Positions 10,346 to 58,865 of a DNA stretch of 64,000 nucleotides are shown one piece after another. Every line of letters begins with the position of its first letter. Position 1 is the stretch's first letter. The notes beneath the pieces were generated by a model that ran no database searches, had not been told where the DNA came from, and worked only from the letters and a program-made list of their open reading frames with translations. The DNA lies in assembly GCA_965213925.1 (NCBI GenBank), contig OZ243927.1:1184001-1248000 (forward strand). Direction: 5' to 3'. The DNA comes from Trueperaceae bacterium. GTDB lineage: Bacteria; Deinococcota; Deinococci; Deinococcales; Trueperaceae. Position numbers and translations under genes: made by a program.

Positions 10346-10604
10346 TACAGCGTTAATCAAGTTTTGCTACTTATTAGCATGTCACCCTGTTCACGAAGTA
10401 GAGCGAAGCTTCGGCGAAGGCGTAAGGGTCTCGGTTGGCTATGCCAAAACTGTGTAACTTTCGTTCTCTGTCAGAGGAGTCAGCAAGGTCAGAGATTCTT
10501 ACACTCCGCTTCGCTCTCCTTCGGTTACGTAGTTTTCGCTTTTGCGAAAGGTACTGACGTGAACCGTTCAGAATGACGTGTTTCATCTTTTGGCTAACAG
10601 TGTA
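10346..10604. mobile_element. MITE-like repeat family A copy with nested micro-insertions
   Basis: Ends TACAGCGTTAA / CTAACAGTGTA; flanks CTGAT / CTAAT; core TGTCACCCTG...GGGTCTC...GAGATTCTT...CAGAATGAC shared with other copies. Confidence 0.85.
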
Positions 10605-33173: not shown

Positions 33174-33418
33174 TAGCAGGCATCATCTGGTCAGCTACAC
33201 TCTCACTAAAAAGAACATCGCCTAGCACGCACTTTCAGGGATGACCTGTTCCCGGTTACACCGTTTTCGCGAATGCGAAAGGGAAACTTCGTAAGCGTCG
33301 CGTGGTTCACGAAGTACTTCCGAAGGAAACCGCTCCCGCTAGCTGCTTTAGCGGGTATATCTGCGGAGAAGTGTTGCTTCGCATGGCTTCGCCCAAGCAA
33401 CGATAAGTGAAACTGCTA
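33174..33418. mobile_element. MITE-like repeat family B copy with nested insertions
   Basis: Ends TAGCAG / CTGCTA; 33212-33373 matches 51154-51315. Confidence 0.8.
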
Positions 33419-51050: not shown

Positions 51051-51339
51051 TAGCAGGTTCCTTCGCTTACGAAGTTTCCCTCCGGGAAGGCTGCGCGCAA
51101 TCAAAATCTGTCTCACTAACGTTCGGAGCTGGTTTGAGCCAATCTCACAGGGTAGAACATCGCCTAGCACGCACTTTCAGGGATGACCTGTTCCCGGTTA
51201 CACCGTTTTCGCGAATGCGAAAGGGAAACTTCGTAAGCGTCGCGTGGTTCACGAAGTACTTCCGAAGGAAACCGCTCCCGCTAGCTGCTTTAGCGGGTAT
51301 ATCTGCGGAGAAGTGGTGCAATGTCAAGTGGAAATGCTA
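51051..51339. mobile_element. MITE-like family B copy with nested insertions
   Basis: Ends TAGCAGG / GTGGAAATGCTA; 162-bp match to 33212-33373. Confidence 0.82.
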
Positions 51340-53200: not shown

Positions 53201-53317
53201 AGTAAAAAAGCACAGTCAAGCGCAAAAGAGCAGCGAGTCGCGCCTCGAGGCAAGCCGAGAACGCCCTGCTCACCACGGTGGCGTACAGCGAAGGTTGAGC
53301 AGTCGCGAATAAGTAAA

Positions 53318-53344
53318 GCGCCCCGAACTCTGAGTTCGGGGCGC
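53318..53344. terminator. Perfect inverted repeat between convergent genes
   Basis: GCGCCCCGAACTC-T-GAGTTCGGGGCGC. Confidence 0.6.
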
Positions 53345-53400
53345 AAGGCATCAGCAGTGCGGACTACGGGACGCTACCTATCACGGTTCGGTACAGATGG

Positions 53401-53883
53401 CTACTCGTCGTAGGTCGCCGCTCTCGACTCGTCTTTGGTGTCGGGCCGGTCCCCCTCGACGAAGTTCTTGATGGACTCCAGCGCCGAGACCAGCCCCTCT
53501 TGTACGTCGTCGCGGTCGGGCGCTTGTTCGGAGGTGTTGTCCCCCGGCGGGTCGCCCTCCCCGTGCGGGGGCGCGCCCGTAAAGGTCAGGTGCACCGTCA
53601 CGTCCGAGCCGTTCCCGTTCTCCGCGATCTCCAGCCAGCCCGAGTAGTACCCCTCGTCCGCGCCCCACTCGAGCCGGTAGTTCTCCCGGTCCTCCCGGAA
53701 GTAACCCTCCGAGTCGTACTCGTGCCCTTGGGCTTCGCCTTTGACCTCGACGCGCTCGCCTTGCGCGGGCTCGGCGCTGTGGGTCGTCGGCAGGTACTTG
53801 GGCAGGTTGCGCACGTCCGCGACGAAGTCCCAAACCCTGTCCGGTGACGCCTCTACGTTGGTGGTGTGTTCAAATTCGCTCAT
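53401..53883 (-). CDS. SRPBCC (polyketide cyclase/dehydrase-like) protein
   Basis: VEASPDRVWDFVADVRNLPKYLP; C-terminal helix ALESIKNFVE. Confidence 0.85.
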   Translation of the reverse strand: MSEFEHTTNVEASPDRVWDFVADVRNLPKYLPTTHSAEPAQGERVEVKGEAQGHEYDSEGYFREDRENYRLEWGADEGYYSGWLEIAENGNGSDVTVHLTFTGAPPHGEGDPPGDNTSEQAPDRDDVQEGLVSALESIKNFVEGDRPDTKDESRAATYDE

Positions 53884-54274
53884 GCTACCCCTCCGACGCC
53901 AACGTAGACCTTTCGGGAAGAACCGTTATGATTCGCGCCTACAGTCTCTGCACGGGTTTCTGCACAAGTTTTTATAATAGCGGCTCACTATAAGACCTTG
54001 CGCGGCGTCGCACTTTCCTAGTCTCGGCTGGGTTTAGAGTGGGTGTAGCGGCACGCAGACCTCGAGCGTCTACGTGACGAAGATTTAGAGCGGTATGGGT
54101 TCCAATACGCTGTCTTAGATAAGTCCACAACGACAGTGACGTCTTCAGAAGCTGAGACCGCGAGGAGTTCGGAACGTGTTCGAAGCTGTCCCTGCCATCA
54201 GCGATGTGGAGGCTGAAGGGCTGTGAGATAACAGCCACGGTAGAGGGGTTGTAGGCGAAAGCTAGACGGCGCTG

Positions 54275-54315
54275 AAGAGAAAGAGGAGGCTCCACAGTTG
54301 GTGGAGCCTCCTCTT
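54275..54315 (-). terminator. Intrinsic terminator downstream of the Cu/Zn SOD gene
   Basis: AAGAGGAGGCTCCAC-agttg-GTGGAGCCTCCTCTT with a pyrimidine tail on the minus strand. Confidence 0.75.
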
Positions 54316-54326
54316 CTTAGGTACAG

Positions 54327-55427
54327 CTACTGCGCCCGCTCGAGCACCCCGCAGGCGATACGCGAGCCCGCCTTGCCGCCTGGGTCGGTCTCCTTGTTGT
54401 CAACCCCCGCGTGGATGATGAGCGCCGTGCCGCCGGGCTTGAGGAACGGGTTCTCGCCCTCCAGACTCGCCAGGGGGAAGCGCACCTCTAAGACGGCGCT
54501 GCCGTCCCCATTAAAGGCGTAGTTATAGTTCTCGCTGTCGCCCACGTGCGGGCCGTTGTCCTCGCCGTGCCCCACGTTTGTCGGGTTGTAGTGCCCGCCC
54601 GCCGCGCCCGCTGCCTCTAGGACGCCGTCGCCGTCTGTATCAGCCGCCTCACAGGAACCGTTCTCGTGGACGTGGACGGCGTGCAGTCCCCCGGAGATGA
54701 CGTCGTTGGCGGAGAGGTCAAGCGCCATCAGCACGCCGCCCCCCTCGGCTTCGCTGAAGGTAGCCGTGCCGAGCGTGTTGGACAGGTCCTCGGCAGAGAC
54801 GACGGAGGCGTTAGCGCCGACCTCCACGTCGTCGTCACTCGTCACGACGACGTAACCCTGCTCCGACTCGCTCGCTTCGCCTGCAGCGTCCGTGACCTCA
54901 GCGCCGAACACGTAGGCGAACTCGTCCCCCGCGCCTTCTAGCTCAGTGATATTGAGCGCGTCCTCGTCCACCCTGACCTCGTAGATGCAGGTGACGCTCG
55001 TCGGGCTGTCCGAGAGTTCGCAGTCGCTCGTGGGCTCGCTGATGCCGGTAGGCTGCCCTAAAGTGAAGAAGCTCTGGGCGGGGTCCAAGGGACCGTTCAG
55101 CCCCTCGGGTAGGTCGTTGAGTAAGCTCACCTCGATGTCGGTGATGCCGTCCGGGTCCTCGTAGTTGACCTGTACGTAGAACGCGCCGCCCGGTGCGACC
55201 CGGATGACGCGGCTGTCCGAGGCGTCCGTGATGTTCCCCTCCGCGTCACTCAGGTAGGGACCGCCGTAGCTCTCGCTCACCCCGAAGCTGCCCGCAGGGG
55301 CGTCTTCGCTGACGTCCTCGCCAGGCTGGGTGACGTTCGAGCCGCCCAACTGGTCGCAGGCGACAAAGAGTAGCGGAAACAGAATTAAAAGTAGGTGTAG
55401 AGATGACAATCGGAAGAAACGCTGCAT
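54327..55427 (-). CDS. sodC: Cu/Zn superoxide dismutase lipoprotein with an extra N-terminal domain
   Basis: Lipobox FVAC; HAVHVHENGSC, AGGHYNP, H...HVGD, LIIHAG.D, GSRIACG. Confidence 0.85.
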   Translation of the reverse strand: MQRFFRLSSLHLLLILFPLLFVACDQLGGSNVTQPGEDVSEDAPAGSFGVSESYGGPYLSDAEGNITDASDSRVIRVAPGGAFYVQVNYEDPDGITDIEVSLLNDLPEGLNGPLDPAQSFFTLGQPTGISEPTSDCELSDSPTSVTCIYEVRVDEDALNITELEGAGDEFAYVFGAEVTDAAGEASESEQGYVVVTSDDDVEVGANASVVSAEDLSNTLGTATFSEAEGGGVLMALDLSANDVISGGLHAVHVHENGSCEAADTDGDGVLEAAGAAGGHYNPTNVGHGEDNGPHVGDSENYNYAFNGDGSAVLEVRFPLASLEGENPFLKPGGTALIIHAGVDNKETDPGGKAGSRIACGVLERAQ

Positions 55428-55713
55428 AGTGCCCCCCATAGGCTATAAGTGGAAGTTGCGCCGCCCCTCGGCGGTGTGTGATGGTGCAGTGCTGATAGAG
55501 TCTCAGTGTGCTCTATAAAAGACCAAAAGGACAAGGGGGCAGCCTACACAAGGGGTAATTGCTGAACGGTATTTTAGGACCGAGCGCTTACACGAGAGAT
55601 GCTCCGCAACTTTGAAGACGCTCCAACCCAATGAGTGCTGCGGCGCTGTCCCCCTCGCTCCTCTTCCGTATGCTCTTCCTGAGGCGTCAGCCTCAACTCA
55701 AGGGGGAGTAGCT

Positions 55714-56187
55714 ATGAACGAAGACAACCTTAAACAACTCTTAGCCGATGGACTGTTGGCCCTCAAAGCGGGCGGGCGCATCGCCGCCGAGTCAGCCGAC
55801 GAGATCAAGGGCTCAGCGTCCGACGACGAGCTGAAGTCGCTGCTGGAGGAAGGCAACGAAAAGTCTAAAGAGTGGAGAGCGCGCGTGAACCGGGCGATGG
55901 AGGAAGTGGGCGCGAGCGGCGAGGGCGAGAACCCGATCATGAGGGCGCACTACGACGTCTCGAAGCAGATTCGCGAAGCCGCGCCGGACGACCAGGTACG
56001 CGACCTGGGCATCATCACCTCGGGGCAGCTGGTGTTGCACTACTGGATCGCGGCGTTCGGCACGATGGCGGCGTACGCGAAGCAGCTTGGGCTGGAGACG
56101 ACGAAGCAGGAGCTGGGAAGCTCTATGGAGGAGGCGAAGCAGGCGGACGAGGCGCACACGCAGCTCGCCGAGCGCATCATGAGCTAA
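55714..56187 (+). CDS. DUF892 / YciF ferritin-like protein
   Basis: RDLGII..GQ...HY.IA.FGT..AYA.QLG, EAKQADE pattern; GGGGGAG RBS. Confidence 0.82.
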   Translation: MNEDNLKQLLADGLLALKAGGRIAAESADEIKGSASDDELKSLLEEGNEKSKEWRARVNRAMEEVGASGEGENPIMRAHYDVSKQIREAAPDDQVRDLGIITSGQLVLHYWIAAFGTMAAYAKQLGLETTKQELGSSMEEAKQADEAHTQLAERIMS

Positions 56188-56288
56188 GACGCCGGACTGA
56201 CGGGAGACAAGGAGGGGCTCATGGTGAGCCCCTTCTCTCATATTTGGTCGGGTCGACGGCAACGTGAGGCTGTTACACTAGTCGCCGA

Positions 56289-56810
56289 ATGATCTTCTTC
56301 AACTCCTGGGCAGATATAGGGCGCGTGCTGCTGGTCGGTCCGCTCGCCTACCTCACCCTCCTGCTGATGCTGCGCGTTTCGGGCAAAAGGACGCTCTCGA
56401 AGCTCAACGCCTTCGACTTCATCGTCACGGTCGCTTTGGGCTCGGTGCTGGCGAGCACGCTCTTGAGTAAAGATGTGGCGCTCGCCGAGAGCGTCGCGGC
56501 GCTGGCTGTACTCATCGTCGGTCAGTTCATCATCACCTACTTGTCGGTGCGTTCAAAACGCTTCCAGGACTTCGTCAAGGGGGAGCCAACGCTTCTCTAT
56601 TACAAACAGCGCTTCTTAGAGGCGCAAATGAGGCGTGCGCGTGTGACGAAAGAGGAGGTGAGGGCGGCGGTGCGGGCGAGCGGGCAGGGGTCGCTCGAGC
56701 AGGTCGGGGCGGTGGTGCTCGAGACAGATGGCAGCTTGTCGGCGGTAGGAGATTCAGAGAGCAGCGCTAGCGGGTGGCTTGCGAACGTCGCTGAGCCTGG
56801 AGAGGGATGA
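56289..56810 (+). CDS. DUF421 / YetF-family membrane protein
   Basis: GKRTLSKLNAFDF...ALGS, GEPTLL, VLETDGSLS. Confidence 0.9.
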   Translation: MIFFNSWADIGRVLLVGPLAYLTLLLMLRVSGKRTLSKLNAFDFIVTVALGSVLASTLLSKDVALAESVAALAVLIVGQFIITYLSVRSKRFQDFVKGEPTLLYYKQRFLEAQMRRARVTKEEVRAAVRASGQGSLEQVGAVVLETDGSLSAVGDSESSASGWLANVAEPGEG

Positions 56811-57124: not shown

Positions 57125-58740
57125 TGGCATTGGTCCATCGCCTTGGACAAAGTTAGTAGGAATAGACTTTGCTAAGGAGGAAGACAATGGCAGAAGGTAA
57201 AAGGGTTGTTCGGCAATATCCAGTCGAGTTCATACCCGCTGAAGCAGGGCACAGGAATTGGCGCGGTGGAACTGGTAGAAAAAAAGGGCTATCCAGTCAA
57301 GCTGGCGGCTTTAGCTTCCGCAGGAACGAACGGTGGCATCACTGAGGCAGCGAGAAGTCTGGGTATTTCCGAGTCGAACATCCACAAGTGGCGTAAGCAG
57401 TACCGGGAAGGGCGCTTAGTGATGGGGCATAAACGGGCACAGCCCACGGCTGATGAAGCTGAGTTACGGCGCTTGCAGGCGGAGGTGAAGCGGCTCGAGA
57501 CGGAGATTGGCGATTGTAAAAAAGGCCGCGAAGAGCCCTCAGCGAGAGGTTCCTTCGGAAGCTTCGCGCAATCATCTTTCAATCTAAGCGCGTAGATAAC
57601 GGCATGCTACGCAGTCGCGTGGACCGCTCCCGCTAGCAGCTGAGGCTCCTTTTTACTTTGCGAAACAGACGACCTAAAATGCACCTTCATCGAGGGGCAT
57701 CAAGGCGAGTTTTCCTGCTGTGTGAGGTGCTGGGCGTGGCTAGGAGCAGCTATTACCACTGGCGGGCGCGTCGGCAACGAGAGCCAAGCGAACGCGAGCG
57801 CAAGAACACCGAGCTACTGGAGAAGATCAAAGCGGTATTCGAGAAAAACAGGGGCAGGTATGGTAGCCCTCGGGTCCACCTAGAACGGGCAAAGCCCGCC
57901 CCTTCGGGGCTAGTTCGCTGAGCTGAAAAAGCAACAGGTCGCCTGCTCTTTGGGACGGGTCAAGCGGTTGATGCGTAAAGAAGGGCTCTTTGCTGTGAGC
58001 AGCAAGAAGGTCCACTTCAAACGGGAGCGGTGCGACCTCGAGACCCAGAACTTGTTGCTAGAGCAGCCACGCCCGACGGCGATCAATCAGGTGTGGCACG
58101 TCGATATCACGTACATTCCTACTGCCGAGGGCTGGCTCTACCTGGCGGGCGTCATGGACGCGAAGAGTCTTTAACAGCAGGTAGCATCTGGTCATGAACG
58201 CAGCAGGTTGGAAACGGCATGGTACGCCCTGTTAAAGACTTCTCTCCAAGCGCATTGTCGGCTACGCCATCCAGTCAAGCTGGACGAACGGTGAGCGACA
58301 ACATGAAGACCGACCTGGTGCTGCAAGCTCTACGCTCAGCCACGACCCGGCGCAAGCCCCCACCCGGCTTGATCCATCATAGCGACAGGGGGAGCCAATA
58401 TACTTCCTACGCCTATGGGCGTGAACTCGCCGCTTGTAAGATGTTGCCGAGTTTCATAGGTAAGGGCGCGTGCTTCGATAATGCGGTGATTGAAAGCTTC
58501 TGGTCAACGCTGAAAAGAGAACTCGTCTACCCAATAGGGCGCTTCGACACCCGCGATGACGCCCGAGTTGCAGTGTTTGAGTACATCGAGGTCTATTACA
58601 ACCGCGAGCGGCTGCACAGCTCGCTCAACTACGAGACGCCTGACACCTTCGAACTATCCCAACAGCAAAGAGAGAATCAGGAGGTGAGCCTAGCCGCTTA
58701 GCTGTATACTTTGGCTGTCCAAGGTTTTAAGCCAAGCCTA
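57125..58740 (+). mobile_element. IS3-family insertion sequence, inactivated by at least six internal insertions
   Basis: Imperfect IRs TGGCATTGGTCCATCGCCTTGGACA / TGTCCAAGGTTTTAAGCCAAGCCTA; OrfA HTH from ATG 57187; AAAAAAG slippery site near 57518; OrfB WHVDITYI, HHSDRGSQY, DNAVIESF, YYNRERLHS. Confidence 0.93.
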
Positions 58741-58865
58741 TCCGTCACCTTGACCTTGCGACTGGGCACGCGCTCTAGCTGCTGGACCAGCTCGAAGGCT
58801 TTGTAATCTTCGCCTGCCCTAAGGTATTGGTAGGAGGTGTAGCCGTCGCAGCGTTTGCGCTGCGT
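58741..58865 (-). pseudogene. 5' fragment of a gene truncated at the IS3 right end (resembles a membrane dipeptidase N-terminus)
   Basis: AAGGAG RBS then ACG; reads QRKRCDGYTSYQYLRAGEDYKAFELVQQLERVPSRKVKVT up to the IS end; family assignment from memory. Confidence 0.55.

Follow-up and report, generated by a model that had tools for sequence, protein, structure and literature searches.

A 22-nucleotide repeat in a decayed IS3-type element of a Trueperaceae genome is very probably an ultra-small mobile insertion module

Palindrome-associated elements derived from IS200/IS605 insert 3' of a short target, strand-specifically, in a hairpin-dependent manner and without duplicating the target; they need two different subterminal hairpins and the protein TnpA, measure at least 100 nucleotides (nt) and show a lagging-strand bias. 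The closest described kind to the repeats treated here is that of the small dispersed repeats (SDRs) of the Nostocaceae, a likeness in described features. Elhai and colleagues reportedly described SDR1-8 in 2008 from Nostoc punctiforme and other Nostocaceae as units of 21-27 nt, nested in each other and in themselves, which are said to have their home in tandem heptamer repeats and mini-transposons and whose mover was left open. To our knowledge this is the only published description of such units, its mechanism left open, and 20-24 nt is far below the size at which any transposition machinery we know of is understood to work. One passage citing the SDR work places SDR5 between nt 3 and 4 of HIP1, an exact and fixed point, and the citing paper reports no SDR outside Nostocaceae among HIP1-enriched cyanobacterial genomes. 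Hairpins with a tag are also found in the REP/REPIN repeats, imperfect palindromes of 20-40 nt that go with RAYT transposases of the Y1 HUH kind and include GTAG- and CGTC-tagged superfamilies (Di Nocera et al. 2013; PMC3733652), and in the NTS/SRM hairpin repeats of the Ssn GIY-YIG single-strand nucleases (Chenal et al. 2025; PMC11893778). In this article we describe a 22-nt sequence, CCAGTCAAGCTGGACGAACGGT (family A), that occurs twice in a 64,000-nt stretch of DNA from a Trueperaceae bacterium (the window; positions 1184001-1248000 of contig C1 of the study genome, G000). That family A is a mobile insertion module we hold to be highly probable; to the fuller statement, which adds that insertion takes place in trans and as a single strand, we give a probability of roughly 0.55.

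The study genome (4.75 Mb, 58% G+C, six contigs, 96.9% complete) has two congeners, G066 and G214; the organism names of metagenome-assembled genomes (MAGs) used below are their titles as given. Its 16S rRNA is 99% identical to that of a Trueperaceae-titled MAG, G001, which is the same genome as G214, and we regard this as a sister species because the genes shared by both are only about 80% identical. The two 22-mers of the window, both on the + strand, belong to one decayed transposase element of the IS3 type, whose orfA carries an HTH_Tnp_1 domain and whose orfB carries rve/rve_2/rve_3 domains. An earlier reading of the letters alone (the sequence-only reading) had seen CCAGTCAAGCTGGACGAACGGT at 58271-58292 and again, split by 20 nt, at 57293-57334, and these coordinates proved exact. 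The repeat is made of a 13-nt CCAG..CTGG part and a 9-nt ACGAACGGT tail, and the copy at 58271-58292 is the sole intact one in the window at up to 3 mismatches, where 100 shuffles led us to expect 0. A self-search of G000 found no close second copy of the IS3-type element elsewhere in the genome; the empty-site reference is formed by the copies in the sister species, none being available within G000. Two of these, L070 and L071, are identical and intact (orfA 108 amino acids (aa), orfB 320 aa), L069 is the syntenic copy of the sister species, and L072 is a mosaic, closest to the window copy at its 5' end and to L070 at its 3' end. A four-way nucleotide alignment of the window copy, L069, L070 and L072 gave the following features.

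57150..58745 (limits approximate), + strand: the host IS3-type element, decayed and single-copy, broken by at least six small insertions
57233..57255 (+/-1 nt), + strand: insertion of about 23 nt, TACCCGCTGAAGCAGGGCACAGG, from a different tiny family; L070 lacks it, L069 and L072 have it
57293..57305, + strand: left part (13 nt, CCAGTCAAGCTGG) of the second copy of family A, after TAT of orfA; site empty in L070
57306..57325, + strand: nested 20-nt family-C element, CGGCTTTAGCTTCCGCAGGA, at CTGG^ACGA of the family-A copy
57326..57334, + strand: right 9 nt (the ACGAACGGT tail) of the second family-A copy, the second half of the split copy
57530..57650, + strand: inverted-repeat element of about 120 nt (gaagagccctcagc ... 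gctgaggctcct); absent from L070 and L072, present in L069
57879..57915, + strand: insertion of about 37 nt (ctagaacgggcaaagcccgccccttcggggctagtt); in the window copy only, by the four-way alignment
58162..58240, + strand: inverted-repeat element of about 79 nt (gaagagtctttaacag ... ctgttaaagacttctc); in the window copy only, by the four-way alignment
58271..58292, + strand: unsplit family-A copy (22-mer CCAGTCAAGCTGGACGAACGGT), within an ATG codon of orfB

Against L070 the window copy shows six clean insertions (~23, 42, ~120, ~37, 79 and 22 nt), all of them absent from L070 and L071. These two copies read ...KKGYGITEAARSLG... at the orfA point and ...SKRIVGYAMADNMKTDL... at the orfB point, with nothing inserted at either, and they supply the empty orthologous sites with which the sequence-only reading had proposed to compare the filled ones. 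The orfB point lies in ...GYA-M-SDNMK..., inside the M codon (ATG), where the 22-mer shifts the frame by +1, and is empty in L069, L070 and L072 alike. The orfA point is the codon junction TAT^GGC, and the whole composite there, of 42 nt, adds 14 codons in frame. At this same orfA point L069 carries family A with another nested insert, the 24-nt family D; two additional points of L069 also hold family A, in one case antisense, and its orfB point holds no copy. The IS3 copies are about equally diverged from one another (78-83%), and given the mosaic nature of L072, recombination can explain the insertions that they share without precise excision. Contigs from sequencing runs of relatives include IS3 copies without the ~120-nt element, and one relative's contig is without both the 79-nt element and the 22-mer (58160 joined to 58297); such contigs probably come from other organisms or other copies. 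Nesting is seen in the neighbouring insertions as well: a relative of TACCCGCTGAAGCAGGGCACAGG occupies the loop of a family-A copy at C1:162973, and the ~120-nt element holds an insert of about 23 nt at ~57601-57623 that the ~120-nt element of L069 is without.

Empty and filled states can also be compared within the study genome. The module ...ctgagcttt^gctctaacc... (ctgagctttgctctaacc) of a 138-member repeat family stands empty in four places, contains family A in two, and contains A plus C, the 42-nt composite, in one; a fifth empty copy, at C1:4034535, is a variant reading gagcttc. A DDE_Tnp_1_3 transposase gene, presumably IS982-like, reads RKRFI^IETVND once an antisense family-A copy is removed, and all four copies of it (99.8-99.9% identical) carry the antisense 22-mer at that point. 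The four elements, each of about 995 bp with the same frameshifting 22-mer, lie at C1:2309091, 2404920, 2431680 and 3607411. Since they share the frameshift, the element must have multiplied after its breakage, whether it was mobilised in trans, copied by segmental duplication or kept working by a bypass of the frameshift. At the paralogous sites the insertion is exact with at most one base duplicated, and no empty/filled pair shows terminal inverted repeats or a multi-base target duplication. The sequence-only reading had claimed that no target is duplicated, which is right for anything larger than 1 nt; the data suit a 21-nt element that duplicates 1 nt just as well as a 22-nt element that duplicates nothing, because the base before the element is the same as its last base (T/T in 55/68 copies, C/C in 5/68).

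Searched exactly and fuzzily, as the sequence-only reading had suggested, G000 holds 11 exact copies of the 22-mer, 33 at up to 3 mismatches, and 68 when a gap is allowed between the two parts (up to 3 mismatches in total), 31 of them unsplit and 37 split by 15-86 nt. The copies are spread over the two strands (37 on +, 31 on -), and what they have in common is the base before them, a T in 59 of the 68. AT^G, the site to which insertion was first thought to be directed, is indeed the commonest, with AT at -2/-1 in 47/68 and G at +1 in 46/68; the general rule is broader, in that the element follows a T and the site is often a hairpin loop. About 31 of 70 flank contexts are arrays of GAGCAAT-type heptamers, which together with a complementary array form long intergenic hairpins. 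Other contexts are the GAGC-TTT-GCTC loop, TGCTT^CGCA, CTGAAAT^TTGAC, CTGAAGT^GCT and the DDE_Tnp_1_3 gene. The 22-mer is not always part of a larger element, as it is found in at least 10 unrelated contexts and is the smallest unit that these have in common, and with flanks that are biased, neither of the two outcomes that the sequence-only reading had named as speaking against it (random flanks, or constant membership in a larger element) was found. Its description of a short hairpin with a tail holds for the presence of CCAG..CTGG, but the fold is weak: -2.4 kcal/mol as DNA, with 32/200 shuffles folding at least as well, and -5.2 kcal/mol, somewhat stronger, as RNA, with no compensatory changes among the 68 copies.

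About half of the family-A copies carry an insert that splits them, and these inserts fall into families of 19-24 nt. The named partners of family A are as follows.

Family B: TTACGCAGTCTCCCGAAGGGA
Family C: TGGCTTTAGCTTCCGCAGGA
Family D: TGTACGTAAGTCCTCACGTAGTGA
Family E: TACACGCTAGTTCTTGCGAAGCAA
Family F: TTATGTAATCTTGCGAAGCAA
Element G: TTACGTAGTTTTCGCGAATGCGAA

The 20-nt passenger noticed at 57306-57325 does split the 22-mer, and is a separate element, because six of the seven matches to family C (up to 3 mismatches) sit at one and the same point of family-A copies; besides CGGCTTTAGCTTCCGCAGGA, five of the other six begin TGGC. All 22 copies of families B-F found within 22-mers occupy the exact point CTGG^ACGA in a single relative orientation. 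Element G has 21 copies, which occupy either the loop of another member (TCCCGC^AGGGA, TGCCGG^AGGCA and the like) or the site ^ACGG, and each is followed by A[GC]G, which amounts to insertion after T on the other strand. Read on that strand, the partner elements consist of a hairpin and then a tail, like the 22-mer, and are inserted right after T. In the CAGGTATCATCTGG family, all 11 insertions at the second site among 87 aligned members follow ...gT, and three-layer nests are found, for instance at C1:2054307 and C1:162973.

The heads of a second class of modules (class II) read GTAG, GCAG or GTAA. Matches to the head TTACRNNSTT number 510, of which 48 show complete pairing of a 5-bp stem (G-T allowed), against 2 of 216 in a reversed-genome control; a looser search for the head and any perfect stem gave 641 matches versus 510 in the control, too noisy for use. 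The stems vary by double changes (TTCGC/GCGAA 21, TTGGC/GCCAA 15, TTCAC/GTGAA 2, TTGAC/GTCAA 2), and the hairpin of family F is CTTGC..GCAA in G000 and TTTAC..GTAA in the sister genome. C-GNA-G, a motif that forms unusually stable mini-hairpins in DNA, is frequent among the loops of class II. The dominant nested variants differ among the three congeners, and together with the different nested element in L069 this points to activity of the modules since speciation.

Further small repeats surround these. Element G (TTAC..GTTTTCGC....GCGAA, 24 nt) lies in the window at 10525-10548, 33256-33279 and 51198-51221, each time inside the loop of another small hairpin. A 113-copy family with a 68-nt consensus begins TAG-CAGGTATCATCTGG and ends ...GATGATACCTGCG (window 58178-58191, 33177, 42489); it contains the most frequent 14-mers of the genome, has tiny insertions at two fixed points of its members, and has no Rfam match in the window, just as no Rfam family matches the window or the IS3 region at all. 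A family of about 138 members ends GTTCAGAATGACAT (window 10566, 42029, 44226, 44420, 48851, 49037, 63561), and its interior is pieced together from optional modules of 20-45 nt such as GGAGTCTATCCTACGCTCGCCGTAGG, which suggests that the seven families named are only a few of the tiny insertion families present. On a larger scale, self-BLAST finds paralogues of window 53244-56805, just upstream of the IS3 remnant, at C1:3.39-3.41 Mb, so that this neighbourhood is part of a larger old duplication.

The distribution of family A across genomes is patchy. Its pattern is found in 3 of 251 sampled Deinococcota genomes (39, 23 and 44 copies), all of one genus, and in 0 of 67 other genomes of the same family; a reversed-pattern control also gave 0. 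A scan of species representatives matched at least 24 assemblies at at least 58 loci. Some 21 of the 24 assemblies listed are labelled Chloroflexota and carry the exact 22-mer (titles Anaerolineae, Anaerolineales, Anaerolineaceae, Chloroflexia, Chloroflexota and Desulfolinea), and among the matches listed there is one assembly each titled Trueperaceae, Alphaproteobacteria and Akkermansiaceae. The Akkermansiaceae match (L011) was set aside, as it is gapped, with an unrelated 22-nt gap, and within chance; by our own arithmetic about 4 gapped and 0.14 ungapped matches are expected in 596 Gb. In Chloroflexota the 22-mer often stands in its own loop (CCAGT^CAAGCTGG) or in tandem, carries other nested units (such as ATCCCATAAATACATTTGGG), and mostly follows ...GAT^GCT. 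It is rare even in the class of one carrier, the Anaerolineae MAG G002 (2/301 sampled genomes, G002 included), and no viral contig matches its pattern. Such patchiness across phyla, combined with letter-perfect conservation, speaks in favour of horizontal spread and of the sequence itself being what is recognised. In searches of the published literature the motif appeared in no relevant context, and nothing relevant was found on nested hairpin repeats in Deinococcus.

We propose that family A would be a non-coding, non-autonomous, ultra-small module, one of a set of 19-24 nt in this genome, whose members may be inserted in trans as single strands, each directly on the 3' side of a T, with 0 or at most 1 base duplicated. 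It would mainly target AT^G, in GAGCAAT arrays and in small hairpin loops, while transposase genes would be struck by chance and the damage tolerated. Class II modules, with a TTACG/GTAG-like head and a 4-5-bp hairpin plus A at the end, would insert at CTGG^ACGA of family A and in C-GN^A-G loops of their own kind, and one such insertion at CTGG^ACGA may have produced the split copy at 57293-57334. The chemistry would most likely be a cut-and-join of single-stranded DNA by a module-recognising protein, HUH-like in its logic. Observed are the precision of insertion, the fixed relative orientation, the target rules, the nesting and the patchy distribution across phyla; the single-strandedness, the action in trans and the kind of enzyme are inferred from these. 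A single-stranded intermediate, be it DNA or RNA, has the balance of likelihood on its side; an HUH enzyme specifically, one of the two chemistries that the sequence-only reading had preferred, we think rather doubtful.

Several observations weigh against this proposal. Y1_Tnp, the domain of IS200 and RAYT transposases, has 0 matches in G000 and in G214, and the only match in G066 is a domain in an open reading frame (ORF) of more than 1000 aa that reads by eye as restriction-modification-type. (This is L075, G066:C4:3784734-3788051, where the Y1_Tnp-like domain scores E 5e-14 in a single frame, type IIG-like by eye.) The genomes G002, G006 and G007 have 9, 1 and 0 matches; a single Chloroflexota locus, on contig C7 of G002, has RAYT-like genes between family-A copies, and three other Y1 loci examined (two of G002, one of G006) are without family-A-like sequence. 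Y2_Tnp had no match in G000, where the control too matched nowhere. Family-A copies have no strand bias relative to the GC-skew halves (15/10 vs 19/21, p=0.44; the skew is weak and the replichores poorly defined), and no orientation bias relative to neighbouring genes (9 sense and 18 antisense in unidirectional gaps, with crude ORF gene calls). As the family-A hairpin is no stabler than shuffles and shows no covariation, recognition may go by sequence and not by structure. Many of the copies have heptamer flanks in common and may have spread by duplication of larger segments, which would inflate the flank counts; since many are also related by descent, these counts overstate independence. Lastly, no near-identical paralogues that differ by a family-A copy turned up in 200 alignments of at least 250 bp, where the sole polymorphism is a 66-nt composite present in two places; these alignments thus give no sign that the element is active in this strain today.

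A single-stranded intermediate could also be RNA. The modules may have arisen as copies of small structured RNAs that a reverse transcriptase inserted into the DNA, an idea that Elhai and colleagues are said to have proposed for the cyanobacterial repeats in 2008 and that we consider unlikely here. Strand-specific insertion without target duplication would suit it, as would the somewhat stronger RNA fold of the 22-mer, and G000 has a gene for a group II intron reverse transcriptase (RT)-maturase-HNH protein in four copies (C1:290593, 2669031, 3429451 and 3474239; 637 aa in three, 618 aa in one) whose RT-domain matches score identically, so that the intron appears recently active. Such reverse transcriptases are, however, common and not specific to carrier genomes; the lack of orientation bias towards flanking genes counts against RNA templates, and so do the many class II loops of the C-GNA-G form, which is unusually stable in DNA.

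A second possibility is that these are tagged hairpin repeats of the REP or Ssn type, handled by a RAYT or by a small GIY-YIG nuclease that was lost or has diverged in this genus; we find this improbable too. The anatomy of tag and hairpin resembles that of two REP superfamilies (PMC3733652) and of the CGTC-tagged NTS bound by Ssn (PMC11893778): the class II head is GTAG-like, and the reverse complement of family A reads CGTC and then CAGCTTGACTGG, with a stem of 4 bp. The stem is short beside the 8-9 bp of the CGTC REPs (PMC3733652), and by inspection family A does not fit the published SRM string HGTCWYN(0-2)YYVSBRHN(0-5)WNVSBRGN(0-2)RNCYNB, having C where W, that is A or T, is required after CGTC (PMC11893778). 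A cognate RAYT flanked by the repeats is suggested by one locus only, on the G002 contig, where two tandem Y1_Tnp genes (168/169 aa) lie between two 22-mer copies. This pair (L074/L077, G002:C7:6950-9100) stands amid dense REP-like hairpins (GAAGTCGCCGCAGGGCGACTTC and others), with the 22-mers at both outer edges. No RAYT was found in G000 or G214. A small GIY-YIG gene is present in G000 (C1:1995079-1995363), the only one, and a copy of the TAG-CAGGTATCATCTGG family (C1:1994956) lies directly upstream of it. Homologues occur in 22/71 same-family genomes (including G263; 21/70 without it), only 3 of which have family A, and across five carrier genomes no copy of family A has a GIY-YIG gene nearby on its contig; the small nuclease is not specifically linked to family A. 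Ssn is moreover known for cutting, and we know of no joining activity.

The remaining enzymes of the genome offer little more. Its multi-copy transposase genes were typed by eye as IS1, IS5-like, IS630, ISL3, IS6 and IS3, none of them readable as HUH; among multi-copy genes a Pfam check covered the DDE_Tnp_1_3 gene and the group II intron. There are two IS110-type genes, and IS110-type enzymes move their own element. A gene between inverted family-A copies (C1:4506550 and 4507454) was looked at as a candidate and rejected, being by eye a DeoR-like regulator flanked by terminator-like heptamer hairpins, and the ORFs of at least 150 aa around a cluster of 8 family-A copies on contig C6 of G006 show, by eye, no evident nuclease or transposase.

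It may also be asked whether anything transposes at all. Short templated patches from break repair, template switching or gene conversion between repeats could be imagined in a phylum with heavy break repair such as Deinococcota, where many copies sit in repeat-rich intergenic hairpins in which recombination is plausible and where the IS3 copies include a mosaic (L072). Yet every unit is complete, and all have the same ends and follow the same orientation and T^ rules; they occupy sites without flanking homology (IS3 orfA and orfB, the DDE_Tnp_1_3 gene), and identical 22-mers exist in a different phylum, all of which makes this explanation very improbable. An ordinary miniature inverted-repeat element moved by one of the DDE transposases is scarcely credible even in a genome rich in multi-copy transposase genes, for nesting is orientation-specific, 22 nt is far below any known DDE substrate, and without terminal inverted repeats or a multi-base duplication a DDE cut-and-paste origin is unlikely, as the sequence-only reading had rightly judged.

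The case has much to offer for finding the mover of family A. Sites can be compared cleanly in the empty and the filled state, the target rules of both interacting classes can be spelled out, nested variants have burst differently in each of three congeneric genomes, and another phylum has an identical element; together these make phylogenetic profiling for the responsible gene feasible. It is also worth pointing out that such modules silently break or lengthen genes, as with the 14 codons in orfA and the frameshift in orfB, which matters for annotation and for the reading of pseudogenes.

We would like to end with how these repeats compare with the systems described at the outset. From the IS200/IS605-derived elements they differ in that neither two hairpins, nor TnpA, nor the size, nor the lagging-strand bias has been seen for family A (no Y1_Tnp match; p=0.44 with weak skew). 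With the Ssn repeats they share a CGTC tag directly before a small hairpin, and small GIY-YIG genes are present in all genomes checked; the Ssn target is recognised on one strand, as single-stranded DNA (PMC11893778). Co-occurrence and adjacency with the nuclease gene are those described above. With REP sequences they have in common a layout that may be read as a small hairpin bearing an unpaired tag on one side, a mostly intergenic position with some copies in genes, a high copy number, and occasional placement next to a Y1 transposase gene, here the G002 locus. They differ from REPs in stems of 4-5 bp rather than 8-9 bp, in copy numbers of tens and not hundreds, in single units of 20-24 nt that insert into one another, and in the RAYT that was not found in G000.

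The likeness to SDRs goes further. The size falls in the same range, with family A at 22 nt and 68 copies and its partners at 19-24 nt; nesting is seen, with 37/68 copies split, and so is a home in heptamers, with 31/70 contexts of the GAGCAAT type. The differences lie in the host and the range. The host here is a non-photosynthetic member of the Deinococcota: a cyanobacterium was considered and ruled out, as no gene of photosystem II was found, HIP1 is rare (93 copies in G000) and the 16S is Trueperaceae-like. The 22-mer, moreover, is shared with Chloroflexota. By analogy with the described repeats, then, what we see here would be SDR-like behaviour in phyla other than cyanobacteria. One may tentatively picture a set of such "nano-elements" of 19-24 nt that share one chemistry (3' of T, strand-specific, often in a hairpin loop) and are moved in trans by something that is neither RAYT nor Ssn, one member having crossed between Chloroflexota and a single genus of Deinococcota; the small dispersed repeats of cyanobacteria might then be one local case of a widespread class that has so far gone undescribed.

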